Below are positions 4,237 to 63,700 of a DNA stretch of 64,000 bases, one piece after another. The notes beneath the pieces were generated by a model. The model searched no databases, was not told where the DNA came from, and was given only the letters and a program-made list of their open reading frames with translations. The DNA is from a virus. Location: the IMG/VR virus record IMGVR_UViG_3300010259_000001, positions 1 through 64,000 of that record; one strand, 5' to 3'. Each line of letters opens with the position of its first letter. Position 1 is the first letter of the stretch. Both the position numbers and the translations under genes were made by a program.

Positions 4237-4716
4237 ATGAAGTATCATGGTTGTATCTTAGAGTTCACAGATGAACGAAATGACGAACTGATGAGAGCGT
4301 TCCGTGAAGCAATCAACAAACGGACGTTCATAGACATCACGGAAATATCGGAAGAAGTGGTGAACATGCCTTGCTCTCGCTTTTGGGTTTCTGAGGAGAG
4401 GGCTATGGTGGTGGTCGCTGCGCTTATCAAGGGAAAGCCTGTACTCGATGCTATGCGACCGACCAAACGAGAAATGTTCCAAGAGATATACAACCGCGTG
4501 CTGGCTCTGCAAAAACAATTTCCAAAAGCATCAATGTTTGAACTGGTGCTGAAAGCCGTCAACTCACCGGCACCAAAGTTCTACATGACACCTCGCAGTG
4601 CTATGGAAACAATATACAAGATAAAGAAAGGGTTCTATGAAAAACAGGAACGACGTTATAGCAGTGCTAACCTATTGTCGCTGCAGACACAGGAACTTGG
4701 ACAAGACCTGCATTGA
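4237..4716 (+). CDS. Hypothetical protein on the opposite strand inside the head operon (moron-like)
   Basis: 159-aa ORF with an ATG start. It is the only plus-strand gene between 1 and 30592. Its 3' end overlaps the terminase 3' end by 50 nt, convergently. No family recognised. Confidence 0.5.
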   Translation: MKYHGCILEFTDERNDELMRAFREAINKRTFIDITEISEEVVNMPCSRFWVSEERAMVVVAALIKGKPVLDAMRPTKREMFQEIYNRVLALQKQFPKASMFELVLKAVNSPAPKFYMTPRSAMETIYKIKKGFYEKQERRYSSANLLSLQTQELGQDLH

Positions 4717-31459: not shown

Positions 31460-32941
31460 TTAGAAACCTTTGCCTTTCTGACGCTCATAGACGGCAACCT
31501 TGCCGTTGTCGCAGTTGACAATCTTGAATTGGACTATTGAGCGAGGAGGAATGTCCGATGGCAGTCCTTTCACCAGTCGCGCAATCACCTCGTCGATGTT
31601 TGAGCAACCAATGTCCTCAAAACTGGTGAGGCACTTGCCTTGAAAGAAAGCTGCTGCCTTGATGAGCATCTTCGGTGACAGACGGAACACGCTGCTTTCC
31701 TCCTCCTGCGCAGCCTGTTTGCTGGCTTGGTCAGAGAAGAAGATAAAATCAACAACACGCTCGTTCAGTTCCCATGCAGGTGTGAAGTCCAGTTTGATGT
31801 ATCCGCGAGTGATGCGGTGTCCTGCACTATGGTTCATGCCGAAAGCAACCTCAGATATGGACGCGCCGCAATCGTTCTGCGCCACCGTTCCCCATGTGTG
31901 ACGGAAAGTATAGACGCAATACCAGTTCTCCTTTGCAATGCCCATGCTCTCACAAATCTTTCGGATGCCTATGTTTACGTTCGCGCTGAAACTGTCGCTG
32001 GTGGTGTGCCTGTCATGGAAGTTGAACAGCCATTCACTGCCTGGTACTGAAGCATACTTCTCAAACAACGGCTTGATAATCTCCGGCACACGCATTTCAA
32101 AGTATGCTCCATCAGAACGGCTGCGCATGGTCTTCGCACGCTTGTAGTGGATGATGCCACCGTGATAGTCCTCCCTGCGCAGGTTGTATAAATCGACCGT
32201 GTTGATGCCTCCAAGACACAATACCATCATGGCTACGTCTCGACCAAGTTCGGGCAACGGCAACTTCATCTTGCTTTCGGGCAGGGGAGAAGAAAAGAAC
32301 CTGCGGCACTCCTCCGCACTGATGGCTCGCTTCTCGGGACGATCTGCATGTGGTATCTTCACCTTTACCCACGGATTGGTCTTCACTCTGATAAGCCCGG
32401 TGTCATAGTCGTTCAGTTCCTCGATGGCTGCGCGAAACACCTGCCTAATGCACACAGGATACATTTCCTTTGCCCTGTTCGTCTGTTCCAAACTCTTTAT
32501 CCACTTCGCCACGTTCGTTGAGGTCAGCATAGAGAACTTCACTTTGGTGGTGCCAAAGTAACGCTCCATGTGCTGGAGTGCCAACTCGTAGTTTTTAGCG
32601 TTCCTCGCCTGTCCGTTGTTGATGAGCCTGTCAATGTGCCGTCGCGCATAGTCAGAGAAGCACAAGTCCTCCTCACCCTTTTGTAGGTAGTCCACAACCA
32701 TTCGTGCAGTCCAGTTGCGAGTGTCCGTCTTGTTCAACTTCGCATTATAGTCAAGAATGAGCGCAGTGCAGAACTGCATCACTACAGGGTCGGTGATTTC
32801 CTTGCTCCTTGACAACTCACGCTTCGTTACCATCTTGTCCGTCTTGATGTACTGTGTCGTGCGGTTGTGCGTCACTCTGATATAGACAGGAAAGAACCCG
32901 TCATTGCGCATCTTCTGTACGCATGCTTTCAGTGTTGCCAT
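31460..32941 (-). CDS. int: Tyrosine site-specific recombinase (phage integrase, Bacteroides-type with N-terminal arm-binding domain)
   Basis: 493 aa. The N-terminus MATLKACVQKMRNDGFFPVYIRVTHNRTTQYIKTD is typical of the Bacteroidota integrase arm-binding domain. Catalytic-box motifs YTFRHTWGT and GHRITRGYIK are present. Confidence 0.85.
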   Translation of the reverse strand: MATLKACVQKMRNDGFFPVYIRVTHNRTTQYIKTDKMVTKRELSRSKEITDPVVMQFCTALILDYNAKLNKTDTRNWTARMVVDYLQKGEEDLCFSDYARRHIDRLINNGQARNAKNYELALQHMERYFGTTKVKFSMLTSTNVAKWIKSLEQTNRAKEMYPVCIRQVFRAAIEELNDYDTGLIRVKTNPWVKVKIPHADRPEKRAISAEECRRFFSSPLPESKMKLPLPELGRDVAMMVLCLGGINTVDLYNLRREDYHGGIIHYKRAKTMRSRSDGAYFEMRVPEIIKPLFEKYASVPGSEWLFNFHDRHTTSDSFSANVNIGIRKICESMGIAKENWYCVYTFRHTWGTVAQNDCGASISEVAFGMNHSAGHRITRGYIKLDFTPAWELNERVVDFIFFSDQASKQAAQEEESSVFRLSPKMLIKAAAFFQGKCLTSFEDIGCSNIDEVIARLVKGLPSDIPPRSIVQFKIVNCDNGKVAVYERQKGKGF

Positions 32942-43345: not shown

Positions 43346-43924
43346 ATGAAAAAGTACATTGGAACAAAGGCCATCATGGCTAAGCCGATGGCAAAGAGTG
43401 AAGCAGAGAAAGTGTTGAACCGCAGCCTTGCTGACGCAAAGGGTGGCGAAGACGGCTACCTCGTCGAGTACCCGGACGGCTACAAGTCATGGTCGCCCAA
43501 AGAGACGTTTGAGGAGGCTTACAAGGTTGCTGACACATACCTCGACCGTATGCGTATTGAGTATGCAGATGTCAAGGATCGCGTTTTGAAACTGCACACG
43601 TTCCTGATGTCTGAGGAGTTCAGAGCATTGCCCAAAGAGAAACAGGCAAAGTTGCAAGCCCAGTGTGGCGCAATGTCCGCCTATGTCGAAATTCTCGGTC
43701 AGCGTATCGACGAGGCTAAGATGGAACAGAAACAACAGGAGGCTGCACAAGCTGCTGCCGCTGCACAGGAGATGCGTGAAAGCCTTGTCGGTCTCACTAT
43801 CGTAGAGGCTGGTAAGTGTGACTTCTGCCCAAGCGAGACAACCAACTGCAAGAAACTTATCCTTGCCGACGGCTCGCACATCTGCGTGAAAGACATGACT
43901 AAACAACCCTCTAAAGCACAGTAA
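43346..43924 (+). CDS. Hypothetical protein with an N4-gp49/Sf6-gp66-like N-terminal domain
   Basis: ATG at 43346. Contains ...DGYLVEYPDGYKSWSPKETFEEAYK.... The C-terminal part has an Ala/Gln-rich helix and a Cys cluster. Confidence 0.45.
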   Translation: MKKYIGTKAIMAKPMAKSEAEKVLNRSLADAKGGEDGYLVEYPDGYKSWSPKETFEEAYKVADTYLDRMRIEYADVKDRVLKLHTFLMSEEFRALPKEKQAKLQAQCGAMSAYVEILGQRIDEAKMEQKQQEAAQAAAAAQEMRESLVGLTIVEAGKCDFCPSETTNCKKLILADGSHICVKDMTKQPSKAQ

Positions 43925-43926
43925 CC

Positions 43927-44547
43927 ATGAGTAAACAAATAACTATCCCTGTTCCCGACGGCAAACGTGCCGAGTGGATTAACGGTGTCCTCACTCTTGT
44001 TGACGAGCAGAAAGTAGATAACCGTCCTGTAACAGAACGTATCAAGACGTTTGATGATGCCTGCAATGCGCTGGGCGATGAGCATCCGCTTGTCACACAA
44101 TACCGTCTTACTGCTGCCGCATACAAAGGCGACCCCATGACGGAAGATTTCATTGCCTACCTCAAACTCCGTATCATCGTTGCTGCTCTCAATGAGGGAT
44201 GGGAACCGAAGTTCACAGAAGATGAGTACAGATACTTCCCTTGGTTCTACTTCTATACCAAAGAGGAGTGCGACAAGTTAGACGACAAGGAAAAAGGGCG
44301 TTGTGTTCTTCGCTCCGGCGACAGCGCGAACTCGGACTACGGCTTCGTGGGCTGCGGCGCGATTAACGGTGCTTCGTTCTCGAGTGCCAGCGGCGGCTCG
44401 CGGCTTGCCTTCAGAACTCGTGAACTCGCAGCCTACGCAGGTAGGCAATTCATCGAGGAATGGGCTGACTTTATGTTTAAGCCTCGCACTGGCGAGGAGT
44501 TAAACGGAAAGTCAGAAGCAGCGAAAACCACCATCGACTTCAAATGA
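43927..44547 (+). CDS. DGR target protein 2 (small, no signal peptide; carries VR2)
   Basis: 206 aa. ...GRCVLRSGDSANSDYGFVGCGAINGASFSSASGGSRLAFR... is in frame with the TR AAY codons. About 45 aa follow the VR. Confidence 0.85.
   Translation: MSKQITIPVPDGKRAEWINGVLTLVDEQKVDNRPVTERIKTFDDACNALGDEHPLVTQYRLTAAAYKGDPMTEDFIAYLKLRIIVAALNEGWEPKFTEDEYRYFPWFYFYTKEECDKLDDKEKGRCVLRSGDSANSDYGFVGCGAINGASFSSASGGSRLAFRTRELAAYAGRQFIEEWADFMFKPRTGEELNGKSEAAKTTIDFK
44296..44409 (+). repeat. DGR variable repeat VR2
   Basis: 114-nt alignment to TR (minus strand of 57414-57527). I count 19 mismatches, all at TR adenines. The 3' flank GCCTTCAGA (44407-44415) is shared with VR1 but not with TR. Confidence 0.9.
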
Positions 44548-44741
44548 ATAACGGACGCTTACAATTCTTCAACCTTGTAAAGGCTATGCGTGAGGCGCAA
44601 AGGGAATACTTCTCTACGCGCTCTCACGAAGCCTTACAAAAGGCTCGCTCACTTGAACGTAGTGTAGATGCCTACATCAAGCGTGGCGACGATTATCTTA
44701 AAAAACAAAATCAAGAACCAACTTTATTCGATAATGACTGA
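44544..44741 (+). CDS. Hypothetical small protein
   Basis: 65 aa. ATGA overlap with the upstream stop. Confidence 0.45.
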   Translation: MNNGRLQFFNLVKAMREAQREYFSTRSHEALQKARSLERSVDAYIKRGDDYLKKQNQEPTLFDND

Positions 44742-46416
44742 TAATATTAAACTACTATATATAGACCTGTTCTGTGGGGCTGGCGGCACCAGTACAGGTG
44801 TTGAAAAGGCAACCTTTCACGGTAGTAAGTGCGCCAAGGTCATTGCCTGTGTCAATCACGATGCCAACGCTATAGCATCCCACGCTGCCAACCATCCCGA
44901 TGCACTCCACTTCACGGAGGACATTCGTACACTTGAACTATCTCCACTCGTTGCGCACACAGAACGCTTGCGCCTACTTCATCCCGATGCTTACCTGGTA
45001 CTATGGGCCAGCCTTGAATGTACCAACTTCAGCAAAGCAAAGGGAGGGATGCCACGCGATGCAGACAGCCGTACACTTGCAGAACATTTGTTCCGATACA
45101 TCGAGGCTCTGCGTCCCGACTACATTCAGATTGAAAACGTGGAGGAATTTATGTCATGGGGCGACATGGACGAGAACGGACACCCTATCAGCAAGGACAA
45201 AGGAAAGTCGTATGTTCGTTGGGTGAACAACGTCTGCAAATATGGCTATTACTTCGACTGGCGCATACTCAATGCTGCGGACTATGGTGCATACACCAGT
45301 CGTAAGCGTTTTTTCGGGCAGTTTGCCCTGCATGGTCTGCCTATCGCTTTCCCCAAAGCCACACATGCCAAATGCCCTGCAAAGTATGAGCATAGCCTGT
45401 TCCCTGCCGACAACATGCAGCCTTGGAAGCCTGTGCGCGAAGTCCTCGACCTCAACGACGAGGGAGAAAGCATCTTCGGGCGCAAGAAACCGCTTGTCGA
45501 GAAAACACTGGAGCGTATCTATGCTGGGCTGATAAAGTTTGTTGCTGGCGGCAAGGAGGCTTTCATCGTGAAGTGGAACAGCGTCAACGGAAAGACAGGC
45601 AAGTATGTACCGCCAAGCATCGACGAACCTTGCCCTACTGTTGCGACACAGAACCGCCTCGGCGTGGCAAAGGTACAGTTCCTAAGCAAACAATTCGGTG
45701 GCGACCCAGCAGGAAAGAACATCAGCGTAGAAGAACCTGCTGGCACAATCACTTGCCGTGACCACCACGCATTTGTATCGGCTCACAATGGTAATGGCTA
45801 CAACACTTCTGTAGATGCTCCTGCGCCTACGCTTACGTGTAAAGACCGCCTCGGACTGGTAACAAGCAACTTTCTTGAAATGCAATACGGCAACGGCACA
45901 CCTGCAAGCACTGACGAACCGGCACCAGCCGTAACCACCAATCCAAAGCATAATCTTGTCAGCGTGAAGCCGTGGATAATGAACACCAACTATGGCAATG
46001 TAGGAAGTTCCATCGACGAGCCATCACAGACGATAACGGCAAACAGGAAGTGGCACTATCTTATGAACCCACAATTTGCCAACAAAGGAGGCAGCATCGA
46101 CAAGCCTTGCTTCACGCTCATTGCCCGGATGGATAAGATGCCGCCGTATCTTGTCAGCACAAAGGAGGGGCTTACCATTGAGGTTTACGAGACTGACAGT
46201 CCTGCAACCATACAAATCAAGGAGTTTATGGCTCTCTATTGTATTGCAGACATTCGTATGCGTATGCTTCGTATTCCCGAACTAAAACGTATCATGGGCT
46301 TTCCCGAAGATTACACGCTCATTGGCACACAGGCAGAGCAAAAGAAGTTCATCGGCAATGCCGTTGAGGTGAACATGGCACGTGTCCTTTGCGAAGCTCT
46401 TTGCAAAAAACTATAA
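44734..46416 (+). CDS. dcm: DNA (cytosine-5)-methyltransferase
   Basis: Motif I LYIDLFCGAGGTSTG, catalytic-Cys motif ASLECTNFSKAKGG, motif VI IENVEEF, plus RKRFF and GNAVEV (motif X). ATG at 44734. Confidence 0.9.
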   Translation: MTDNIKLLYIDLFCGAGGTSTGVEKATFHGSKCAKVIACVNHDANAIASHAANHPDALHFTEDIRTLELSPLVAHTERLRLLHPDAYLVLWASLECTNFSKAKGGMPRDADSRTLAEHLFRYIEALRPDYIQIENVEEFMSWGDMDENGHPISKDKGKSYVRWVNNVCKYGYYFDWRILNAADYGAYTSRKRFFGQFALHGLPIAFPKATHAKCPAKYEHSLFPADNMQPWKPVREVLDLNDEGESIFGRKKPLVEKTLERIYAGLIKFVAGGKEAFIVKWNSVNGKTGKYVPPSIDEPCPTVATQNRLGVAKVQFLSKQFGGDPAGKNISVEEPAGTITCRDHHAFVSAHNGNGYNTSVDAPAPTLTCKDRLGLVTSNFLEMQYGNGTPASTDEPAPAVTTNPKHNLVSVKPWIMNTNYGNVGSSIDEPSQTITANRKWHYLMNPQFANKGGSIDKPCFTLIARMDKMPPYLVSTKEGLTIEVYETDSPATIQIKEFMALYCIADIRMRMLRIPELKRIMGFPEDYTLIGTQAEQKKFIGNAVEVNMARVLCEALCKKL

Positions 46417-46420
46417 GAAT

Positions 46421-47386
46421 ATGGAAATAGAAATCAACACCACCTATAACATGGATTGCCTAAAAGGGCTTCGGAATATGGCGGACAATTCTGTGGACTG
46501 CTGCATCACATCACCGCCTTATTTCGGACTCCGTGACTACTGTGTTGATGGGCAGATAGGTTTGGAGAAGTCGCCAAATGAGTATGTTTCAAAAATGGTT
46601 AAGGTTTTTCGTGAAGTGTATCGTGTACTGAAACCGACAGGCACATTGTGGCTGAATATCGGCGACTGCTATGCTGGAGGCAACAAAGGCGCGGCCGCTT
46701 ATCCCGATAACGCCAAGAAATATAAGCAGGGAACTAACAGGGGAACTGTTGGTAACAGGACTGCTTACAGGTATCAGACAACCTGTAAGGATAAAGATTT
46801 AATCGGTATTCCTTGGATGCTCGCTTTCGCTCTGCGTGATAAGGTTGGTTTCTATCTACGTCAAGATATAATATGGCACAAGCCAAACCCGATGCCGGAA
46901 AGTGTTCTTGACCGTTGCACAAAGGCACACGAATACATCTTCCTGTTCTCAAAGTCCAGTCGCTATTACTTCAACCATGAGGAAATGCAGGAGCAAGCGG
47001 TATGTGCTGCCGTTGAACGACAAGAGAACCCACCTCGCTATGGTGGCAATAAATACACGGCTACGCCCGACAAGTTCAACCGCACAAAAAGCGGTAATGC
47101 CTACGCCTATACAGGCAAGCGAAACAAACGTGACGTGTGGACTGTCAGCACTAAGCCCGAAAAGAGTGCGCACTTTGCAGCCTATCCGAAAGAACTGATT
47201 GAGCCTTGCGTCCTCGCTGGCTGTCCAAATGGCGGTGTCGTTCTTGACCCTTTTATGGGAACAGGCACTACGGCCATGGTAGCAAGAATGTACGGACGCA
47301 ACTTTATCGGCTTTGAACTAAATGCCGATTACATGAGTATCATCAACAAGAAAATTCAAGTAACACCAAATATGTTTTATCTATGA
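46421..47386 (+). CDS. DNA N4-cytosine or N6-adenine methyltransferase (beta class)
   Basis: Catalytic motif DCCITSPPYFGLRDY near the N-terminus and SAM motif VLDPFMGTGTT near the C-terminus. SPPY favours an N4-cytosine enzyme but is not decisive. Confidence 0.85.
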   Translation: MEIEINTTYNMDCLKGLRNMADNSVDCCITSPPYFGLRDYCVDGQIGLEKSPNEYVSKMVKVFREVYRVLKPTGTLWLNIGDCYAGGNKGAAAYPDNAKKYKQGTNRGTVGNRTAYRYQTTCKDKDLIGIPWMLAFALRDKVGFYLRQDIIWHKPNPMPESVLDRCTKAHEYIFLFSKSSRYYFNHEEMQEQAVCAAVERQENPPRYGGNKYTATPDKFNRTKSGNAYAYTGKRNKRDVWTVSTKPEKSAHFAAYPKELIEPCVLAGCPNGGVVLDPFMGTGTTAMVARMYGRNFIGFELNADYMSIINKKIQVTPNMFYL

Positions 47387-48748: not shown

Positions 48749-51511
48749 ATGATTAAAGAACTACAATACAAAGGATATGCCACTGAACCGTCAGACTATG
48801 AATGTCCCGACGGTCAGTTGGCTACGTCCTTGAACCTCATCAATGAGGATAGTCAACTCAAACCAGTATTCCAGCCGTCTGAACTTGCAGAACTTCCAAG
48901 CGGCTATAAAGTAGTGTATATTCACGACACCAACACGTTCACCCATTACATTCTGCTCAACACAAGCACAAACAAATTGTATTGGATTGACGAAAGCATC
49001 ATCACGGATGGTGCCGTAAAGCCTGTGTCAAGTGCGACGATTGAAACGGAACTGGCTCAGACAAGCCCAAGCCGTGAACTCTATTCGTTTGGTTCAACTG
49101 AAATCTACAATGTCAATGGCATCGGTAACACGCTGATTGTTCTTACCGCCAATGGTATGCACTACCTGCTTTGGAAAGGCGACACAGAGGGATATCTGTA
49201 TCTTGGTACACATCTACCCGAATTGCCTATCTCGTTTGGGTTGCAAGGCGAGGTGGTGCGCACTGACGTATTCAGTATTTCTTTTAATGGCATCGGCGAG
49301 GGCAGTCTTTGGAATGAATTTTCCGATGAAAACAAATCACGCATAACAAGTCAAGTGCTGGCAAAGGTAAACAAGTTCATTGCTGACCAATCAACCAACG
49401 CTGGTAAATTCATCTTTCCTTTCCTTGTACGGTATGCTTACAGGTTGTATGATGGTTCTCTTACTATGCACTCTGCGCCTATTCTCATGGTATGTTCTTC
49501 CGACCTCGCTCCACAGGTATTTTGGGAGCATGTAACAGGACATGGCGAATATACCGATGCGCAGTTGCGTGTTGTTGGTGTAAGGCATACTCTTGACTAT
49601 GCTGTTGTACTGGCTTCCCGTATTGATATGCTAAGACAGTGGAAAGATATTGTGCACTCAGTTGACATCTTTATCTCAAAGCCTATCTACACATACGACC
49701 AAAACGGACAATGCACAAGGTTCGCACAGTCAAGCGAAATTAACTCTTTCTGTATCTGTAAGCACATCAATCAAGCTGCTGATACAAACACATACCCTTT
49801 GCGATACCAGTACAATACATTTAACAAGTTGTATGCGTTCACTTACAACCCGACAACTTTCACATACCCCTCTGGACGCTTGATGATACCGCAGCGTAGC
49901 ACTGACCAGGTGAAATCCGATATACGTTCATGTTCCCAGTTCTATCTACTCAAAAGCATCAAGTTAGACGAACTGACAACTACGCGCACGGCTGTTTCCG
50001 TTGAAGAAGATTATTTGCAATCTCTTGTGAATAGAGAGGTTATGACAGACGACTTTGACAGTCATGATGTATTGATACCGCAATACTCTTTTGCATATAA
50101 CTCACGACTGAACATTGCCAATCTAAAAAAGAAACTTTACGATACTTTCAATGCCGGAGCAATGTTCTGTTATACCGATGGCTATGTTCAGAACTTTTCT
50201 AACGATTCACCAACTATTATTGACCGCAAAGCCTCATGGGGTGTCTATTTCTTCATAAAGCAGGACGGACGCGACATCATTGTGCAGGGAGAGGCTTTTG
50301 TTATGAGTGTGCAAGCGCGTCTATTATTTTTCTATTATCCAAACGTCAACGCATATAAGGCAGTATTCTACCGATATGATAACTTCTATGATGCCTACGA
50401 GGTGCCACTGGAGGCACACGGTTTCCTAAATGGAGCATTTTATTTTGGTGGATGGGATAACGCCACAAAAACTACATCATTGCCGTCTGAGTCAAGTGAG
50501 GCAATACGCACAATAGATGTTCCCAACAAAATCTACACCTCCGAAGTCAATAACCCATTCCACTTCCCTGTTTTGGGCATCAACACCGTAGGTACTGGCA
50601 CCATCCTCGGCATATCTGCTGCGGCAAAAGCAATGTCGCAAGGTCAGTTCGGACAGTTCCCACTATACGCTTTCACCACTGAGGGCGTTTGGGCGTTGGA
50701 GGTGTCTTCCACTGGCTCATACTCTGCACGTCAGCCTATCACGCGAGACGTGTGTATCAATACTGACAGCATTACGCAGATAGATAGTTCAGTTCTCTTT
50801 GCCACAGACAGGGGCATTATGCTTATCAGTGGTTCACAGACACAGTGCATCACGGATAACATCTTCAGCGAAGCACCGTTCAATGTGCTTGACCTGCCCG
50901 GCATCGGCCAACTACACACAAAACTCGGACACTCTGCAGATGCTTGTCTGCCCATGAAGCCGTTCCTCGGTTTCCTTGCAGGGTGTCAGATGGTTTACGA
51001 CTATGTGCATCAGCGTATCTTTGTGTATAACCCTACAAAGGAGAATGTCACACCCAAATACACATACGCCTACGTCTTCTCTCTCAAATCGAAAATGTGG
51101 GGCATGGTGTTCACAAACCTTGCATCAACCATCAACGCATATCCCGAAGCACTGGCAATGACACACGATAACAAACTGGTGTCATTCTCCGAAACCGACG
51201 AGCAGGTGTGCAAGGGTCTTTACATTACCCGACCGCTCAAACTGGAGGCTGCCGATGTTCATAAGACAATCTCCGCACTCATCCAGCGCGGACACTTCCA
51301 GCGTGGCGATGTCGGCACGGTGCTGTACGGCTCACGCGACCTTTTCTCTTGGCACCTCGTTTGGTCTTCAAAAGACCATTACCTGCGTGGGTTCAGAGGT
51401 ACACCATACAAGTATTTCCGAATAGCAGGATTGGCGACACTCACCGATGGCAAGTCCATCTTCGGCGCATCAGTCAACTTCGAGCCTCGCCATACAAACC
51501 AGTTACGATAA
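48749..51511 (+). CDS. Large hypothetical protein (920 aa), possibly structural
   Basis: ATG start, own promoter box, and a bidirectional terminator downstream. Beta-rich composition. No family recognised. Confidence 0.55.
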   Translation: MIKELQYKGYATEPSDYECPDGQLATSLNLINEDSQLKPVFQPSELAELPSGYKVVYIHDTNTFTHYILLNTSTNKLYWIDESIITDGAVKPVSSATIETELAQTSPSRELYSFGSTEIYNVNGIGNTLIVLTANGMHYLLWKGDTEGYLYLGTHLPELPISFGLQGEVVRTDVFSISFNGIGEGSLWNEFSDENKSRITSQVLAKVNKFIADQSTNAGKFIFPFLVRYAYRLYDGSLTMHSAPILMVCSSDLAPQVFWEHVTGHGEYTDAQLRVVGVRHTLDYAVVLASRIDMLRQWKDIVHSVDIFISKPIYTYDQNGQCTRFAQSSEINSFCICKHINQAADTNTYPLRYQYNTFNKLYAFTYNPTTFTYPSGRLMIPQRSTDQVKSDIRSCSQFYLLKSIKLDELTTTRTAVSVEEDYLQSLVNREVMTDDFDSHDVLIPQYSFAYNSRLNIANLKKKLYDTFNAGAMFCYTDGYVQNFSNDSPTIIDRKASWGVYFFIKQDGRDIIVQGEAFVMSVQARLLFFYYPNVNAYKAVFYRYDNFYDAYEVPLEAHGFLNGAFYFGGWDNATKTTSLPSESSEAIRTIDVPNKIYTSEVNNPFHFPVLGINTVGTGTILGISAAAKAMSQGQFGQFPLYAFTTEGVWALEVSSTGSYSARQPITRDVCINTDSITQIDSSVLFATDRGIMLISGSQTQCITDNIFSEAPFNVLDLPGIGQLHTKLGHSADACLPMKPFLGFLAGCQMVYDYVHQRIFVYNPTKENVTPKYTYAYVFSLKSKMWGMVFTNLASTINAYPEALAMTHDNKLVSFSETDEQVCKGLYITRPLKLEAADVHKTISALIQRGHFQRGDVGTVLYGSRDLFSWHLVWSSKDHYLRGFRGTPYKYFRIAGLATLTDGKSIFGASVNFEPRHTNQLR

Positions 51512-54488: not shown

Positions 54489-54960
54489 CTAAAATTTTGT
54501 CAACCTCGGCTGCATCAACATGTAGTTTTGCTGCAATTTCACCTGCAAGGGCTTTCTTTAGTAGTCGAAGAAATAAGAAATTTGGGAATAATATCAGCAT
54601 TGATGCGCAACTGCTCCAAAATTCTACCAGTATAATCACTGTGCCTACTATTGCGGCTGACAAAATCGTATCAGCAATCTTGTCAAGACCGACGAAAACA
54701 AACATGGCACAACCATATACGGCAAGTTTCGCAACGGTCAGTCGGGCGAGTTCTGACAATGTGAATTTTCCTTGCTTAATACTAACGGCAATACCCCAAA
54801 TTGCATCCATAATGGTTACTGCCATTACAAGAAACACCACAAACTTATGACCTGCAAAATAATCTATTAAGAACAGGCACAGTCCAGTGAGCCATCCCCA
54901 AACAGTCTGCAAGATACAGAGCAGCTTCTGAAAGAAATGTGTAATGATTTTTGCAAACAT
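54445..54960 (-). CDS. Holin (multi-TM, phage_holin_4-like)
   Basis: 171 aa with about 4 hydrophobic helices and a charged C-terminal tail. Immediately upstream of the amidase and overlapping it. Confidence 0.7.
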   Translation of the reverse strand: MFAKIITHFFQKLLCILQTVWGWLTGLCLFLIDYFAGHKFVVFLVMAVTIMDAIWGIAVSIKQGKFTLSELARLTVAKLAVYGCAMFVFVGLDKIADTILSAAIVGTVIILVEFWSSCASMLILFPNFLFLRLLKKALAGEIAAKLHVDAAEVDKILDETNNKNNDNENSD

Positions 54961-54983
54961 CTTATTTTTCGATTTTTTATTTG

Positions 54984-54991
54984 CAAAATTA
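54984..54991 (-). promoter_or_regulatory. Bacteroidota-type -7 box (TAATTTTG) for the lysis cassette
   Basis: Exact TAnnTTTG match on the minus strand, 24 nt upstream of the holin ATG. Confidence 0.4.
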
Positions 54992-55039
54992 CGCTCATAA
55001 CAACAGTTCGACCTGTTATCTTTTGAGTTGGTCGCCTAT

Positions 55040-55081
55040 ACACAAAGAAAGAGCCACAGGCTTATGGCTACCTGCGGCTCT
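55040..55081 (-). terminator. Rho-independent terminator after the 98-aa gene
   Basis: 11-bp stem agagccacagg (55050-55060) with cctgcggctct (55071-55081), one mismatch. T-rich tract downstream on the minus strand. Confidence 0.55.
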
Positions 55082-55100
55082 CAAAACCATTTATGTAGTA

Positions 55101-55397
55101 TCAACTATGATGTGGGGTGTCGTAGTTAAAGTAGTATCTTCCGAATAGGCGCGTGCTGATATAGTAAAGCAAGGCTATCAGCGTGAACCATGTGAGCGCA
55201 TAGGGGTTACGGCTCTGACGAGTTGATATTTTCTGCATATTGAGAAACAGGTTCGTGTCTGCTTCCTTGCGCTGTTCCTCACCACCTCCCTTGTCATACT
55301 CGTTGTCATGCAGCACGCACGCTGCATAATACTTCTTGGCGTATGGGGGCTTGATATATTTCAGCAGACCTTTGGCACAACCGCAACCGTTACTCAT
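55101..55397 (-). CDS. Small membrane-anchored protein with a phospholipase-A2-like HDxxY...D motif
   Basis: 98 aa. GCGCAKG (Ca-loop-like), ACVLHDNEYDKGGGEEQRKEAD (HD-x2-Y then D), and a C-terminal TM segment LTWFTLIALLYYISTRLFG. Confidence 0.4.
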   Translation of the reverse strand: MSNGCGCAKGLLKYIKPPYAKKYYAACVLHDNEYDKGGGEEQRKEADTNLFLNMQKISTRQSRNPYALTWFTLIALLYYISTRLFGRYYFNYDTPHHS

Positions 55398-55887
55398 AGT
55401 TCGACATATCTAAACTGTCCTTTTCTGCCCAGCCCTCATTGAGACACTGGTTAATGTAGGCGACTGCAGACGTGTAGAAGTCCGTGAAGTCCTCCATGTT
55501 TTCAAAGGTGTGGTACACGGCTTTGCCCTCTGCGTCTTCACCAAGTTTGAACTTAATAGGCAACATGGCACCACCCATCTGCATATTGAGGTCGAACGCT
55601 GCCTTGAAGTTGTTTTGGTTCTCAGCACTCAAATACACACGGATGCCTTTCCATGCAAAGCCGTTCAGTATCTTTTCGTCTGTATTGGCGTTGATGGTGT
55701 CAATGATAAGGTATTTAACCTCGCTGACGGTGGGCTTATAGTCCAGCGTCTGACGGTAGTTATATCCTGTGCCTCCGTCCATGCCGAAGCCATAGAATAC
55801 TTCCCAGCGTTTACGACCTATCTGCTGTATGCCGTCTCTGCGTTCTGATGCTCCATAAATCTTTTCCATGCCGCAAAGATACGACAT
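55390..55887 (-). CDS. Hypothetical protein downstream of the RT
   Basis: 165 aa. An alternative ATG lies at 55869. Not helical-bundle-like, so not an obvious Avd. Confidence 0.5.
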   Translation of the reverse strand: MSYLCGMEKIYGASERRDGIQQIGRKRWEVFYGFGMDGGTGYNYRQTLDYKPTVSEVKYLIIDTINANTDEKILNGFAWKGIRVYLSAENQNNFKAAFDLNMQMGGAMLPIKFKLGEDAEGKAVYHTFENMEDFTDFYTSAVAYINQCLNEGWAEKDSLDMSNYE

Positions 55888-55919: not shown

Positions 55920-57263
55920 TCATGAGAACTTATACTTTACCTTGCCTCCGTCAAACACTTCACTGACAATCGTGGTTTCAAATGGGAAACCGTCTTCGAT
56001 GTCGCTGATTTGGTCGAGGATATTCTTCATTTCCTCAGATGCTGTAAAGAACTTGCCCCAGTCGCCTGTCTGCTTGTCACGGAAACTTACCACATAGCGG
56101 TCTTCACCCTGCGATGTGTTGATGCCAGTCTCGTAGTCATGCACTTCAATAGTTTTGTTCACGATTGCGCCCAAGCGCATTGTCTTACCGGGAAAGCGTT
56201 TCTTTCCGTCGGCAGGGGTGTAACTAACACCCATTTCGCTAAACTTTTTCATTTTCTGATTTGTCAATTTATAAAACAAGTGTTTACAATCAGCATGGCA
56301 AGCCATGCCTTTGAATGAGCCAATAATCTCTTGCCGACGTTTCCGCGACTTCACCTTTGCCAGTTTCCTTGCTGCTTTCTGCTTGATACGCTTGCGCAAT
56401 AATGAATGGGTGCCATAATGCACATAGCCAAGAAAGTCCAGTCCAACGTCCAGCGGTCGCACCGCCTCCGATGGCTTAACCTCCAAACCGAGACGTGCCA
56501 CTGCTGCTATATGAATGTTGCGCAACTCCCACAATTCTTTTTTCGTGCTGGCAAGCATTACGGTATCATCGCAATACCTGTAATACAAATAATGTGTCTC
56601 ACCGCCCTTTTCATAGTGTTTAACGTATTTCAGCATTTCATGGTCAACCTCATTCAGATAGAGGTTGGCGAAACACTGCGAGGAACGAAGACCCTTTGAC
56701 AAGCCTTGTGGCATGAGCGTAATGAAACTGTCAAGGATGGGTAGCAGTATCGGGTCTGAAACATACTTCCTTATTATCTGCATCATCCGCAGTTGGTCGA
56801 TGCTGTCATAATAATGGTGTATGTCGTTCTGATAGTAGTATTGTGATTGTTCGGGAGCATTGGTAAGGTCTTCCTCTACGACGTGGTGCAGCCAGTGCAT
56901 ACCACGTCCCTTGATGCTTGCTGCCGTGTTCTTGATGAGCGTAGGGTATGTGTACTTCTCTATCACTACCATGATGGCATGGATGCCAACACGCTTCACT
57001 ACCGTTGGGGCTTGCACATCGCGCTCTTTGTAGCCCTCAGTTACATGCAGGTCGCGAACATCGCTACGCACAATACGAAAAGAACCTGCACTGATTTCTC
57101 TGCGTAGGCTCTCTATTATCGTCAGACGTTTAGGTCTGTACATTTCCCGTTGTCTTGGATGTTCAAGGTGACTGATAACGTAGTCGAAACTTTCACCCAT
57201 GTTCTCCTCGCTGACAATTTCGGGAATTAGATTGTCGAGAGGAAATCTAATGTCATAGTCCAT
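55920..57263 (-). CDS. DGR reverse transcriptase
   Basis: 447 aa. YxDD box YYRYCDDTVMLAS. DGR-type motif ...PQGLSKGLRSSQCFANLYLNEVD (the SQ signature). Lies 150 nt downstream of TR. Confidence 0.92.
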   Translation of the reverse strand: MDYDIRFPLDNLIPEIVSEENMGESFDYVISHLEHPRQREMYRPKRLTIIESLRREISAGSFRIVRSDVRDLHVTEGYKERDVQAPTVVKRVGIHAIMVVIEKYTYPTLIKNTAASIKGRGMHWLHHVVEEDLTNAPEQSQYYYQNDIHHYYDSIDQLRMMQIIRKYVSDPILLPILDSFITLMPQGLSKGLRSSQCFANLYLNEVDHEMLKYVKHYEKGGETHYLYYRYCDDTVMLASTKKELWELRNIHIAAVARLGLEVKPSEAVRPLDVGLDFLGYVHYGTHSLLRKRIKQKAARKLAKVKSRKRRQEIIGSFKGMACHADCKHLFYKLTNQKMKKFSEMGVSYTPADGKKRFPGKTMRLGAIVNKTIEVHDYETGINTSQGEDRYVVSFRDKQTGDWGKFFTASEEMKNILDQISDIEDGFPFETTIVSEVFDGGKVKYKFS

Positions 57264-57413
57264 GCCTTCAGGACACTTAGTTATGTTTCGGCTTTCTACA
57301 TTATGTAGGGTTGCCGAGGCTCAAACCCTTCGCCCTTGCGGTCAGTGTACACGACACTGGTGTATAGGAACGATATTAAACAGTCTGCCTCCGAAAGACA
57401 GATGTATCTTGCT

Positions 57414-57528
57414 GGTAAGCCGCGAGCCGTTGTTGGTATTCGAGTTCGAAGCATCGTTATTCGCGTTGCAGTTCACGAAGCCGTTGTTCGAGTTCGTGTT
57501 GTTGCCGGAGCGAAGAACACAACGCCCA
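57414..57528 (-). repeat. DGR template repeat (TR)
   Basis: Minus-strand reading GRCVLRSGNNTNSNNGFVNCNANNDASNSNTNNGSRL, with 13 AAY codons and 30 adenines by my count. Not part of a gene. Confidence 0.9.
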
Positions 57529-57686: not shown

Positions 57687-57702
57687 GACGCTTTGCCGCT
57701 TG

Positions 57703-60700
57703 CTACTCAACGAACTCGATTTCGCCTCTGAAGGCAAGCCGCGAGCCGCAGTTGGTATTCGAGTTCGAAGCATCGTTATACGCGACGCAGTACACGAAGC
57801 CGACGTACGAGTTCGTGACGCCGCCGGAGCGAAGAACACAACGCCCAGTTGAAGCGGAGTAGTATTGACCATCACAATAATAGGTGTTGTAATTGGAATT
57901 AGACACCGTCTTACTCGGCACAACATCACAGAACCGTCCATGTCGGACACGACAAACTTCTTGGTCGGAATTGTTTACGCCTTGCACGGCTCGTTCCGTA
58001 CCATCTGCCATTCTGATGCGCCAGATATGGTCAACAACGCTGCCGCTTGGCACTTGGCTCTTGTTCTTCTTGTAGGCATCGAAACTTGCAACATTCACAG
58101 CCACATTGTCCATCCACTCCCATGCACAACCCCACCAGTCTTCAAGTCCTAATGTGCGAGGTCTGCCGGTAGTTGTCTCATAGAAAGGCGAACGGTTTGC
58201 GCCATCCGTCGTACCTGTATTGACCACACCAACGCCGACACCATTCACGGCTTGCGAGTTTCTGCGTCCGTGAATAGCCATCCACAGGTTAGCGATGTCC
58301 TTGTGCATTTCGTAGTCCACAAGTTGATAACCCTTGCCACGGCACTGCACGATGTTTTGGAAGTCCTTGCAAGTGAAGTTCAGACTGGTGCCAGCCTGTG
58401 GCAGGTTATTCGTCACGTTGCCGTTCTCGTCGTACTTCCAAATGTTGCTGGTGCTTGAAGTGCCTGTGCCTCGCTTTGGTATCGCACCGCTGATGGAACG
58501 AAGACGGTTGAGGTTATCAACACTTCCTTTGTACACGCCAATTAGTTCAAACTGGTGTTCCACCCAGTCGGGTTCAATGGCTTCAACGGCTGCACTATCT
58601 ACAGCGATGCACTCTAAATCGTCGTAGCCCTGTGGTGTGCAGAACACGAACTTGGCTGCACCTGCCGGCACATCGACAAAGACATATTCACCTTGTACGA
58701 AATCGCTGTTGGCGTGAGTGATGTAGGTGTAAACGGTGCTAATCACCTTGTCATTCTTGTCAAGGAACACTGCACCGATAAGGTTGCTGTTGATACCAGG
58801 CCACCTTACCTGCTTCATGTTCTCTACATCCATGCTGTAAACATTGTTGGCACTGCTGTCTGTCAAATTGTCAGCATCGAACACATCGCCAACATTGAAG
58901 TTGCCGACATATACACTTGAAAGACTTTTCACTAACAGGTTGCTCAACGTGTCTCGGTTTACGTTACGAGCGGTAGAACTTGGAGTATTTGTTTCTGTTG
59001 AGAAAGCAATATACTTCTTATTGTTCACATGGTCGTTGATACCCTTGTACCAGTAGTGAGGCAAGCCAAGGAACAAGTCGTAACCAGTACCATTAGTGTC
59101 TGTAATGTCAAGGTCAAGACCGTTGGCAAGGTGGTACAGGTCACTGTCACTTACCTGCTCCAACTGCATCTTATTGGTACTTTCATTGAAAGTTCCTTTA
59201 TATACATGCAACTGGCTTTGCAGTTTGGTGATGTGTCCGCTTGGGATATAACCGTCGTCAACGCCGTCAGTGGTATTGTTGTCGAGGTTTCGGATATTGC
59301 CGTCAAACTCCATTGCATCGTCAAACTCTATCAACGTATATTGCGCATTGTATAGCGTGAGGTTCGGGAAGTATGCTACAAGATTGGCAAAGATGGCATC
59401 CTCAACGAGGTTGCTCATAATCCAACTGCCGTTCATGCCGTCGCAAACATTTGTCTGCTCACTTCCTATTCCGCGAGTGCCAAGGCTCTGCATGGTTTCA
59501 AGGGTTCTGCTGTTGCCTGTCATATCGTAACTGTCTATCTGCACTTCTGCAAGACGTGCGCCAGCATTGATAACATCGGCAAGCAACTGTTGCGCGTCTA
59601 TGCTCGGGCAACCGCTTAACTGTATGCGAGTGACGTTCGCCAATCCATCAAATGATACACCGCCATTGGGATAGCCAAGACTGGGCAGGTTCACGAATGA
59701 CAGTTCCGTCATGCTTGATGGCAAAGTCAGCGTCTGCAAGGGTGACGATTGCGCAGAACTGAAAGAGCGAAGCGAGCTGCCGCTTGCCTGTACTTTCTTC
59801 AAGCGTGGGCAACCACTGGCATTCAGCGTCAGCACCTTGGTATTTCTGATGTCTATCTCTTCTAAGAATGGCATCTGTCCGAGGCTCAACGCTGACAGTA
59901 TGTCGTCGGTGTACGATGGCGTATAACTCTCTCCACCGATGATGAGTTTCCGCAATAGCGTACAGTCGGCTATAACCCAGTTGCTGTTTTTCGGTGTACA
60001 GCCGCTTAAATCAAGTTCGCTCAGTTTATCAGCACCGAAGATATAGATAAGTTTACCACCGACACCTGCAGCAGCCTCAGTAAAGGTGTGGCTCTCACCT
60101 GCGCGCAGATAGCATGAATACTTTGCGCTGCTGGTGCTGTCAACGCCCATGCCAAAGTAACCGTCCTGTGCTGCCGTAATCTTCACGGTGATGGCTCCCA
60201 TCACACGCGCTTGGAAGAAATGCTTGAACAGGTCGCCTGTCTGATAGTAGCCGTCGCGGTAGGCGAAACGCTTGCGCTGGAATGCTGGCAGACTTTCAAG
60301 ACGCAAACCGTGCAGTGCCGGATAGTGGTTGTCTGCTGCCGTCGCGGTCTCGATATACTTGCGCTGGCCGTCGAAGCTGCTCACTACCTTTGCCCACTTC
60401 AAGATGCGGTTTGTCATCCAGTAACGGTAGCTGCCTGCTGCACTGAATATCTCCAGTCCTGCGCCTGTCTTGGCAGAACGCATGGCGGCGGCGGTATTAT
60501 GCAAGGTCAGTTGTGTGCCGTTATCATCAATCCAAACGCCCTCGCCTCTTTCAAACAGGGCAAACGACTGGCGGAACATCACACCGTCCCAACCTTGGTA
60601 CAGGTGGCTGTTCGCTCCGTCCATATCCCAAGGGATAGTCAGATAACAGTCGTTGTCGGCCTCGTCAACACTATCACCATCATACCAGTGGTTGAAGTAG

Positions 60701-63700
60701 TAGCGCATGTTGCCGTCAGTCTCTTTATAGACTGCTATCATCATGTTCTTGGCTCGCTGGTCAACGGTAGCCTTATAATCCGATGCCACAATATAGTGGT
60801 TCGTGCTGTAAGGGTTGAAGTAGTGGTGCATCTCATGCTGCCACTTCAACAGACGGTTGGTCTTGGTTCCTGCTACGGTATTGCCGTCAAGGGTGATGGT
60901 GAGCGATGCACCGTCACCGTTGAAAATCTTTTCGCTGCCGTCGGGGTTCAGTGCGGCATTCTCTTCGTGGTCGTCCGTGAGGTTCTGATTACACTGCTGA
61001 CAGAATAACAGTTCACGGAACAACTGATAAGGTACCTTTCTACCCTGTGCGTACAGGTCGTTCAAATCATCATCGTCGGGGTAACGGCTCTCGTAGTATG
61101 TTGACCAGATAGGCACGTCGCCATCATCGGTGTGCAGCGTTTCAAGCATATCATCGACGCTGTTCACACCCTGCTGCCAACAGAACTCTTGATACTGGCG
61201 ATACTCGTAACACTCAACAGGGTTAAGCACTCTGCCTACAATCACCCACTTGCCAGTGCTGCTCTCGTAGGTCATGCTGCCTGTGGTGTCGCGCCATACG
61301 CCACCAGTGTACTTGTAGTACTTGCCGTCGGTGCTGCGATAGACAGTTGCCCAGTCGTAATCGCTGACATCATCTGCAGCAATCTCTGCGCCTGTTTTGT
61401 CAACCTCAACGAACTCGGCTACGGCATCGGTCTCTGTCATGGCTCCTGTGCCGTCGTTCTCTATGAAGCGCGTCTCGGGGCCACAGAACTCACTAATCAT
61501 ATAGAGCATTCCGGGGATAAGCGATGCTGAACCAGCAAGCACCGTTGCCTTGTAAGCGTCAATGTTGGTGCCTCGCGGTGTAACAATCTCCTTGAAATCG
61601 CCATAGTTCACACAGCCCTTGTTGTAGCCAGGCACATCTTCGAAGCCGAAGAAATGGGGGTTGCCCTTGTCGGCATTGAAGTTAGCCTTGCTGTGGAAGT
61701 AGGCGTTTTCGGGAAGCGTAGCGGCCTCGGAACCTTTCTCCTGTCCGATGCGGTAGTCCGTGCGGAACAATGCACAGGTAACACCATCAATGGAGGTGTG
61801 CAGCTCCTCGCTGCTATCAGTGTTGAATATCTGTGCAGGGGTCATGTAGTTTCTACCCAAGGCAATCTGAACATCATTCATCTGCTCCATCAGTGCACAG
61901 TTATTCGCACCGGCACTGTCCGAATAGTCCACCTTGATAGTGATGGTGCTGATAGGGGTGCTGCCGTCCTTGATGCGTATCTTCTTCTTTGCAGCGAGTT
62001 TCACTGCCTCGTCGTACTTGGCAAGAATGGTTTCGTCGCCATTATACATCTTGCTGACCTCTTCGCGCGTATGCAGCATGACAATGCGCTTGGCTTTCTT
62101 TGCCTTGCCTTTCTTGTTCTTGATTGCGTAGGCAAGTGTAGATGTACCTTGGTTCGTAACGGGGATAGCCTCAATCATACAGTCTGCCCAAGGACGGTCG
62201 GGGAAGTACAGATACCAGTCCATAAGCACCTGTGTCTTCTTGTCCTTGATATTCTCGATATAGTCGGGATAGTATATCTCGCTATCCGTCACGGCTGCAC
62301 CGTCCTTGCTCAGATTGGCATCAGAAGTGCGTGTCTCAACACAAACCATCACACCACGGTCAATCAACTTCTGCATATCGGGGCGAGGTTTCGTCACACC
62401 CTCTGCCGTAATGTCTGCCATCACTTGGTTCTGCTCATACTCGGTAAGCATAGCCTGCGTGTCGGTAAGGTTCACGATGTAGTTGTTGAATGCCTGTATA
62501 AAGTCATAGTAGGTGTTCCAGCGCACAATCTCATATAGATAAAGGTCGGCATCACTGCCGTCAAAGTGGATGGTGTCGCCAAATACAGGGAATGCGCTGC
62601 TGGTGTCTATTGGCACACAAGCAGCCATATCACCGTTTTGGAAGACTTTGCAAAGCATCACTCCACTGTAAGGAGCGCGTGCTTGCGGCTCTATCACGAT
62701 GTCAAATCGGTACACCACATCGTCAAGATATGAGGTCGCGGCTGTTGTATGTACGTTGGCGAGTGCCTCATCGCTATCACCGTTTGTAGTGACGATGAAC
62801 TTCTCACCAGTAAGCACGAAGCCGAGACGCTCACCAAGACACTTGATGATATGAGCGTTTCGCTTAGCGATGTTCTTCACCTTGAACGTCATTGAAAGAG
62901 CAAGTCCATTGGTAGGGATAGAGGTGCTGGCAAAAGGCTGGTCGGTACACTCTGCAGTGACGTTCTCTGCCACACGTAGCGACATGCGACCACCGCTCTG
63001 CTCGGTACCGAACGTATCAAGCACAAAGCCGTTGGTGGAGTAGTTCGAGCCGGTAACAACAATCTCTTTCTCCGTGCCGTCGGTGGCTTGGGTCTTGATG
63101 GTCTTGTCGGTGTCGGTGTTGCTCCTACCTGCGAGGCTTATCTTATACAAGGCTCCCTCGGTCTCGGCAATATCCAGCAGCGAACCGTTGACAAGCACCT
63201 CGCGCGTCTCTGCCAAAGAGGCAACGCCGCAGGTGGCATCGAAAGTAAGAGTGTCGCCCTGACTGTAACCAACGACGCGCTTCTCTATCGTGTAGTACCT
63301 GTTGCGGTACATAGAACTCTCACTAAGGGTCTCTGTCGTGTCTGTGGTCTCGTTGGTCATGGTAACCTCTACGACGCATGGGTTCTTGCTACGTTGGTAG
63401 CAGGCAAGGTCTATCTTCAGAGTCTCAAAGAGTTTCACTTCGCCGTCGCTGTCGTCGCTCCATCGTGCCACAACAATAGGCTTGTCGTAGTCGGCAACTT
63501 CCTCACGCTGCTCTATCACCATCACTGCGGTATGCAGCACGTTACCTCGCGTGCCGCTGGCTACGTCGGTACCCTGTATGCGGATGGGGTATGCACCATG
63601 TCCTAACCCTGTCGGGTCGATGCTCACATTGTGGGGATAGGTGTCGTTGACAACAACGTCCTGTAGCGTTTCCCAGTCGCCGTTCTTGTATATCTCCACA

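Follow-up and report, generated by a model that had tools for sequence, protein, structure and literature searches.

How does one retroelement in a phage genome come to diversify two proteins that are encoded 13 kb apart, and what might the second of them do? The question is raised by an open reading frame (ORF) of 206 amino acids (aa) in IMG/VR virus record IMGVR_UViG_3300010259_000001, of which we analysed positions 1 to 64,000 (64,000 nucleotides [nt], hereafter the window). From the letters of this stretch, an original prediction had held that the ORF contains a variable repeat (VR2) of a diversity-generating retroelement (DGR) whose template repeat (TR) and reverse transcriptase (RT) lie on the opposite strand, beside a first target with its own repeat (VR1). 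We examined this claim by alignment, by comparison with relatives and by analysis of the protein family and its neighbourhood. The elements concerned are the following.

43927-44547, plus strand: gene for the 206-aa hypervariable protein, almost certainly the second DGR target (phrog_11581, E = 2.8e-51)
44296-44409, plus strand: VR2, 114-nt variable repeat, with 19/19 mismatches to TR at A and population entropy confined to A-containing codons
44395-44415, plus strand: IMH-like (initiation of mutagenic homing) 3' element of VR2, GGCTCGCGGCTTGCCTTCAGA, the same as the VR1 copy and unlike TR
57414-57527, minus strand: TR, with 30 A and 13 in-frame AAY codons
57733-57846, minus strand: VR1, at the C-terminal end of a 2076-aa protein, with 14/14 mismatches at TR adenines
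55920-57263, minus strand: DGR reverse transcriptase, 447 aa (PF00078; phrog_1423, E = 1e-90; motifs GLRSSQ and YCDD)
57703-63933, minus strand: first DGR target, 2076 aa, ending 7 residues after VR1

A BLASTN search of the window with the VR2 region (44250-44460) showed that the sequence recurs just twice, at 57846-57727 and 57527-57414, each time on the minus strand. In an ungapped three-way alignment, the copy at 57414-57527 is the adenine-rich one, with 30 A in 114 nt, identifying it as TR. All 19 mismatches between TR and VR2 over the 114 nt fall at TR adenines, as do all 14 mismatches between TR and VR1 (57733-57846); the hypergeometric p-values for every mismatch falling on A are 2.7e-14 and 4.7e-10, respectively. 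The adenine-only pattern first counted for VR2 was therefore reproduced, and the alignment supports a second target of the same DGR, placed on the strand opposite to TR at a distance of 13 kb.

The geometry of the repeats is consistent with this assignment. Homology starts abruptly at GGGCGTTGTG in VR1, VR2 and TR alike. VR2 is in frame and occupies codons 124-161 of the 206-aa ORF, encoding GRCVLRSGDSANSDYGFVGCGAINGASFSSASGGSRLAFR, which is the peptide as it had been written originally. In the same frame TR supplies 13 AAY codons together with ACG, GAT and ACC, a design that allows ~1.2e17 variants and makes stop codons impossible. At the 3' end, the 21-nt element GGCTCGCGGCTTGCCTTCAGA is identical at VR2 and VR1 (57727-57747), whereas the TR counterpart at 57408-57428 reads GGCTCGCGGCTTACCAGCAAG and diverges at five of the nine last positions. 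That the two VRs share a 3' flank unlike that of TR had also been noticed from the letters, and an IMH/IMH* pair would be expected to show it. Because the element is present in both VRs and absent from TR, it is the expected basis of one-way transfer from TR to VR.

We then considered sequence variation among relatives. The 206-aa protein has 6,378 database homologues, and entropy was calculated over the 120 closest, which are 86-100% identical to it. The 17 TR codons with an A had a mean entropy of 2.36 bits, as against 0.10 bits for the 21 VR codons lacking A and 0.13 bits for the 168 residues outside the VR. At the AAY sites, Tyr made up 26%, Ser 21% and Asn 17% of the residues. There were 117 distinct VR peptides among the 120 homologues, although counting distinct VRs on identical scaffolds is partly trivial, since the database lists non-identical representatives only. 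Among 13 IMG/VR relatives, the flanks were near-identical, yet 14-20 changes occurred at TR-adenine positions, and recurrent non-A differences at positions 89 and 104 were traced to variants in the relatives' own TRs.

Each VR2 is best compared with its own TR. Exact-pattern TR scans of IMG/VR gave few loci because TRs differ between strains, and two cognate TR/VR2 pairs only were obtained via RT loci. In contig 068249, VR2 differs from TR at 18 adenines and at no other position; in contig 3300026176_000019, there are 16 differences at A and one elsewhere, and an A-to-T variant at position 42 of that TR is present in both of its VRs. Together, 34 of the 35 VR2 differences lie at TR adenines. 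The allele comparison across relatives, which the original prediction had named as the test that might overturn it, thus found variation restricted to adenines. Other clades of the target family show equally localised hypervariability, and L018 (55% identity) has its own TR 9.4 kb off, with 12/12 mismatches at A.

Two loci in this set show unusual repeat structures. L013 (IMGVR_UViG_3300026549_000532, 8813-8974) was considered as an unmutated VR2 and rejected as an assembly chimera. It runs from the VR2 5' flank into TR and its downstream flank and then ends, revealing the relative's TR and providing an example of DGR repeats breaking or mis-joining metagenome assemblies. In L073 (IMGVR_UViG_3300045988_068249, 2428-2520), VR1 is shorter than TR by 18 nt (GGCTTCGTGNNCTGCNNC), through either a true deletion that keeps the frame or a collapsed assembly.

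Taken together, VR2 is undergoing diversification in natural populations, and we conclude with near certainty that the 206-aa gene is a genuine, active and remote second target of a single DGR.

In the DGR cassette, TR sits 150 nt upstream of RT, which shares 45% identity with the RT of Hankyphage and 54% with its counterpart in Bacteroides phage BS-TP4. The C-terminal ~110 aa of RT match a separate PHROG, phrog_19665. A DUF4376 protein (55390-55887, minus strand) follows RT, as it does in BS-TP4 and in some Hankyvirus-like phages (BKO1-TP1, BX-TP1 and BX-TP2), and it may be a lineage-specific DGR accessory.

A hairpin had also been reported downstream of VR2.

44431-44446, plus strand: hairpin GCCTAC-GCAG-GTAGGC, 6-bp stem and 4-nt loop, 16 nt after the IMH-like element

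Its presence and position stood, but it does not fold with unusual energy (z = -1.1), and nothing comparable is present at VR1. The hairpin lies inside the coding sequence, in the codons for AYAGRQ; the 6-bp form is confined to the window's own clade, and other clades have stems of 4-5 bp in the same codons. With an ordinary energy, a clade-specific distribution and no equivalent at VR1, a conserved recognition element was not established. In a comparison of L024, L027, L028, L035 and L042 with L056, a 5-bp stem occupies the hairpin position ~20 nt after the VR, in the codons for Y-C-G-K-Q, and ACTGC/GCAGT is replaced by ATTGC/GCAAT, a compensatory synonymous pair. This single case hints at selection on a post-VR stem-loop.

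What kind of protein is the second target? As originally described, it is small and lacks a transmembrane segment (maximum Kyte-Doolittle 19-residue mean 1.06) and a signal peptide. Its N-terminus is not signal-like, the first 45 residues contain no Cys, and the isoelectric point is 5.05. It continues 45 residues beyond the VR, of which ~25 form a helix conserved across the family, ELAxYAGKQFIxxWADF. The other conserved features, in addition to the VR, are an N-terminal helical part (xTERIKTFxDA, AYLKLRII) and the motif AALNEGWEPKFTEDExRYxPWFYLYT. A profile search of 1.84 billion representatives placed members of the family (E <= 1e-3) in at least 3,396 clusters at 50% identity. Stand-alone proteins of 145-260 aa that span the whole profile make up nearly all of them, and the few longer members carry no further domain that could be recognised. 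When the GenBank phage collection was searched by tblastn, homologues came solely from phages of Bacteroides and Phocaeicola: four LoVEphage records as well as PV4-TP1 and BI-TP1 (37-41% identity), and BT-TP2 (52%).

Searches for a known domain or fold gave little. The 206-aa protein has no match in Pfam, NCBIfam or PADLOC, a Pfam scan of 27 other family members and of longer, N-terminally extended representatives found no significant domain, and profile and single-sequence searches of the PDB with the target family and with the VR1 C-terminus returned chance-level matches only. A first AlphaFold2 run with 35 sequences was poor, with a predicted local distance difference test score (pLDDT) of 56; a second, with an alignment of 104 sequences, reached 70 overall. 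In this model, residues 1-125 and 160-185 are confident and mostly helical, and VR residues 127-158 have pLDDT below 50. Foldseek found no PDB match to the model at E <= 0.001, the VR being low-confidence, and the matches in BFVD were uncharacterised gut-phage homologues only.

The gene lies in a plus-strand block whose features near the target are as follows.

43346-43924, plus strand: upstream neighbour, 192 aa, PF21825 (Sequestin, formerly crAss001_48; Pfam E = 5e-17)
44544-44741, plus strand: 65-aa ORF, phrog_15937, whose start overlaps the target stop codon (ATGA)
44734-46416, plus strand: C5 cytosine DNA methyltransferase, variable cargo (PF00145)
46421-47386, plus strand: N6/N4 DNA methyltransferase, variable cargo (PF01555, E = 5e-55)
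48749-51511, plus strand: 920-aa protein, phrog_32516, a core gene of the phage lineage, 61% identical in BS-TP4

The block runs through RecT, an exonuclease, a SNF2 helicase, HU, a replication initiator, a DnaC-like loader and DUF4494 to the PF21825 protein, the target, the 65-aa ORF, the C5 and N6/N4 methyltransferases, small ORFs and the 920-aa gene. It is tightly packed, with gene starts and stops overlapping around the target, and the variable accessory island that holds the target lies between the replication genes and the 920-aa gene. A promoter and terminator scan was uninformative, the sigma-70 consensus motifs being unsuited to Bacteroidota, and early-gene transcription of the target is putative, judged by strand and gene spacing. 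The 920-aa gene was dropped as a functional clue, as it is simply a core gene of the lineage.

The PF21825 neighbour points towards anti-defence. Ten of 13 tested Sequestin members inhibited type I Thoeris, and purified SequestinA bound 3' cyclic ADP-ribose (3'cADPR) directly (bioRxiv 10.1101/2025.07.12.664507). The PF21825 domain spans residues 65-123 of the 192-aa protein, the N-terminal region matches other PHROGs, and the Cys-rich C-terminal tail (CDFCPSETTNCKK...HIC) has a faint ClpX zinc-finger-like match; the protein may be a fused or extended sponge.

Downstream, the target is indeed located by the methyltransferases, but it is not immediately upstream of them as had been stated, because the 65-aa ORF intervenes. 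Several clades, and LoVEphage too (OY731433.1, 55448-55627), keep this ORF directly downstream of the target, at 38-73% identity, and it is the only neighbour that recurs in close linkage with the target family. Its product is a candidate partner of the variable protein. The methyltransferase slot that follows is empty in L002 and L003, holds C5 only in L004-L006, L009 and L010, holds N6/N4 only in L007 and holds both in the window. We rejected an obligate functional link between target and methyltransferases, since close relatives carry none, one or both. In other lineages, the neighbours of the target include an N6 methyltransferase with a TAGT-family gene, an S-adenosylmethionine synthetase, an ArdC-N protein, and YqaJ, helicase and primase genes. 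Judged from gene content, what recurs is that DNA-modification and anti-defence genes form an accessory island inside the replication block, with no fixed enzyme partner.

The window holds a temperate phage, a gut Bacteroidales prophage, with an integrase at 31460-32941 and, on the minus strand, the terminase large subunit (TerL, 4667-6769) and the portal (6782-8755). Directly downstream of portal and TerL is a 6,696-aa ORF (8813-28903, minus strand), far above the usual size of a phage structural protein. The portal is 67-69% identical to the BS-TP4 and BKO1-TP3 portals. BS-TP4 is syntenic with the window phage, carries other cargo between DnaC and the 920-aa gene, and lacks the target. LoVEphage and Quimbyvirus were each described as ~95% identical to the B. 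dorei CP011531.1 prophage (for Quimbyvirus, PMC8008677) and are cited together in PMC12629997; they are one phage. TerL, portal and capsid of the window have no match to LoVEphage at E <= 1e-5. Because four genes only (HU, target, 65-aa ORF and RT) are common to both, and because the portal has its nearest relatives in BS-TP4 and BKO1-TP3, the window phage is, by its gene content, not Quimby-like.

These observations lead us to the following explanation. The single DGR (RT 55920-57263, TR 57414-57527) produces adenine-mutagenised cDNA that replaces two homologous 114-nt cassettes, namely VR1, at the end of the 2076-aa structural-type protein adjoining the DGR, and VR2, in the 206-aa protein. 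The 206-aa protein would be a binder that can be diversified and that takes part in the conflict of phage and host within the cell, whether infected or lysogenic. Its variable surface, rich in Tyr and Ser, would keep pace with a polymorphic macromolecule of the host or of a competitor, probably a defence component, and the co-translated 65-aa product possibly works together with it. An intracellular binder is suggested because export signals are absent, the non-structural, anti-defence neighbourhood is recurrent, with a Sequestin-family anti-Thoeris sponge and anti-restriction methyltransferases beside the target in this phage, and the composition of the variable surface is antibody-like. We consider this explanation as a whole, DGR target and intracellular binder together, to be evenly balanced between right and wrong. 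A counter-defence role inside the cell is a tentative proposal, falling a little short of that. Doubtful, in our judgement, is the most specific version, in which the family would be a DGR-diversified cytoplasmic counter-defence binder whose scaffold is largely helical rather than a classical C-type lectin fold and whose hypervariable surface, rich in Tyr and Ser, is continually re-aimed at polymorphic immune proteins of the host.

Several points weigh against this explanation. No ORF flanking RT and TR has a Pfam match to an Avd-like gene, so that the Avd accessory gene was not recognised near the RT and TR; Avd is not universal among DGRs, and its absence does not exclude DGR membership. The C-type lectin fold expected of DGR targets was not confirmed, with the VR at pLDDT <50 and no PDB match. 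HHpred gave a C-type lectin domain for the Quimbyvirus homologue (Benler et al., PMC8008677), which was not reproduced here. The methyltransferases beside the target vary among close relatives, and a specific functional link to the target is therefore unlikely. The plus-strand block ends with the 920-aa gene, labelled 'putative structural protein' in BS-TP4 on the basis of structure alignment, and consequently the block is not purely non-structural. Localisation, expression timing and binding partner are plausible readings of the neighbouring genes and of the absent export signal, and gene-neighbourhood arguments are weak in phage accessory islands. Nothing here distinguishes anti-defence from other intracellular roles.

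Could both targets instead serve adsorption? The small protein would then be a virion-associated or released accessory of host recognition, such as a lectin-like adaptor docking to the tail or a binder of capsular polysaccharide. The experimentally understood phage DGR targets are all receptor-binding proteins (PMC8008677, PMC8144416), a putative structural protein ends the gene block, and the target VR is homologous to the tail-type VR. When the target was aligned to tail-type C-terminal domains with hhalign, however, homology was confined to 42 VR columns (98% probability), and outside the VR there was no detectable homology to structural proteins. A common scaffold for both DGR targets was rejected, as BLASTP and hhalign homology stops at the VR, and the limit of the homology to the VR columns argues for one VR cassette set in two scaffolds that are not detectably related. 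Moreover, five phage lineages place the gene among replication, recombination and DNA-modification genes and not among tail genes, the protein lacks a signal peptide, and the closest cultured relatives, BS-TP4 and BKO1-TP3, have RT and a tail-type target without this gene. We regard a role in adsorption as unlikely.

A second possibility is that the protein is expressed from the prophage and protects the lysogen. Its diversified surface would detect proteins of phages that superinfect, and the 65-aa ORF or some other partner would serve as effector, much as in the DGR-diversified antigen sensors that have been proposed for bacteria. The phage is temperate, the small downstream partner ORF is conserved, and bacterial DGR targets have been linked to defence or sensing (cited in PMC12629997). 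Against these stand the lack of effector and signalling domains throughout the family, its longer members included, the lack of a PADLOC match for the target, and the position of the gene within the lytic replication block and not at the repressor or integrase moron positions of the window. The neighbouring genes, too, are anti-defence rather than defence. Such a sensor seems to us quite improbable.

It is very improbable that VR2 is a by-stander, a copy of VR and IMH in an unrelated gene that is mutagenised without a selected function. Such an origin would fit the confinement of homology between the two target families to the VR cassette, but not a scaffold so strongly conserved (at least 3,396 clusters, nearly all full-length and stand-alone) and kept across unrelated phage lineages, each with its own cognate TR. 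The in-frame VR, a codon design that cannot create stops, and the near-invariance of non-A positions and flanks also speak against it. That the repeats are alike through simple paralogy or by chance, without any action of the DGR on VR2, is refuted by the 19/19 mismatches at TR adenines (p = 2.7e-14), by the 34/35 cognate-TR differences at A and by population hypervariation in A-containing codons only.

The intracellular, diversifiable binder is the reading that we carry forward, and its interest lies in the stage of infection concerned. Phage DGRs are understood almost solely as tropism switches on tail fibres. That a target other than a tail protein is found in several lineages of gut phages, unrelated to one another and very abundant, suggests that targeted hypermutation also serves another stage of infection. 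If the protein is a cytoplasmic counter-defence binder, DGR biology would extend from adsorption to intracellular counter-immunity, and the family, with at least 3,396 clusters at 50% identity, would make up a widespread class of remote targets that had not been surveyed before. By its own account, the largest DGR survey could not detect remote targets (PMC8144416), and the target family is therefore under-counted. Phages that bear homologues and are inducible and engineerable (LoVEphage isolates, BT-TP2 and PV4-TP1) make its function directly testable.

Both the phenomenon and the protein family had been described before (2021, 2025), and the discovery itself is not new. Of the novelty first supposed, the phage lineage and the context stand; the arrangement had been published for Quimbyvirus in 2021 and in PMC12629997. 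Our analysis adds a new phage lineage that carries the family, the size of the family and its uniform small-protein architecture. It also adds a tighter counter-defence context, with a Sequestin-family protein upstream and interchangeable methyltransferase cargo downstream, the conserved 65-aa partner ORF, and the finding that homology of the two target types ends at the VR.

How, then, does the locus compare with known systems? With the DGRs of BPP-1 (Mtd) and Hankyphage (tail fibre) it shares adenine-specific transfer from TR to VR, AAY codons, a GC-rich IMH-like 3' element and the RT motifs GxxxSQ and YxDD (45% identity to the Hankyphage RT). Unlike in those systems, the target is apart from the cassette, it is no recognisable tail protein and no Avd was recognised. 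In the C-type-lectin DGR proteins Mtd, TvpA and TaqVP, the VR is at the C-terminus, whereas here 45 residues follow it and the fold is not demonstrable. The setting resembles anti-defence islands, known for Sequestin (PF21825), Tad and Acb sponges and for orphan methyltransferases, in that the target stands between a PF21825 protein and two orphan methyltransferases within variable gene content. It differs in that the target has no similarity to known anti-defence or defence families in Pfam, NCBIfam and PADLOC. To our knowledge, no known anti-defence protein is DGR-diversified.

Closer parallels come from cultured gut phages. A 2025 study (PMC12629997) described four cultured gut prophage species with a second VR near counter-defence genes such as a DNA methyltransferase. 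Of the phages in that study, BT-TP2, PV4-TP1 and BI-TP1 encode homologues of the 206-aa protein, whereas the members of the window's own lineage in the collection (BS-TP4, BKO1-TP3 and BF1-TP2) are without the target gene.

The closest parallel is Quimbyvirus/LoVEphage. The original prediction had pointed to DGR targets nested among defence-related genes in the candidate family Quimbyviridae, and this proved correct: Quimbyvirus was reported in 2021 (PMC8008677) to have a second DGR target (ORF 80/84) nested in defence-related genes, in a published context of a nuclease gene, four genes for methyltransferases and one for a tRNA ligase. The two phages differ in backbone and in TR and VR sequences. 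The RT of the window is a single intact ORF, whereas the Quimbyvirus RT was reported as three overlapping frames (PMC8008677), and the immediate neighbours here are, unlike in LoVEphage, a Sequestin-family protein and two methyltransferases. In OY731433.1, barrnap annotates a 5S ribosomal RNA at 57700-57805 (L001, 8817-8922), ~2.3 kb downstream of the second target. The LoVEphage homologue is a 194-aa protein (coding sequence 54812-55396 of OY731433.1), 37% identical to the 206-aa protein over residues 18-187 (tblastn E = 3.5e-16) and assigned to the same PHROG. Two matches to nucleotides 391-507 of its coding sequence lie next to the RT at 69656-70471, namely a TR rich in A (70864-70757) and a VR1 (71152-71037). 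The two targets are thus alike in size (194 and 206 aa), in the placement of the VR, in the C-terminal helix motif that follows it and in the distance of the VR from RT and TR, on the opposite strand. In both phages a homologous small ORF lies directly 3' of the target, and genes for DNA modification and counter-defence are close by.

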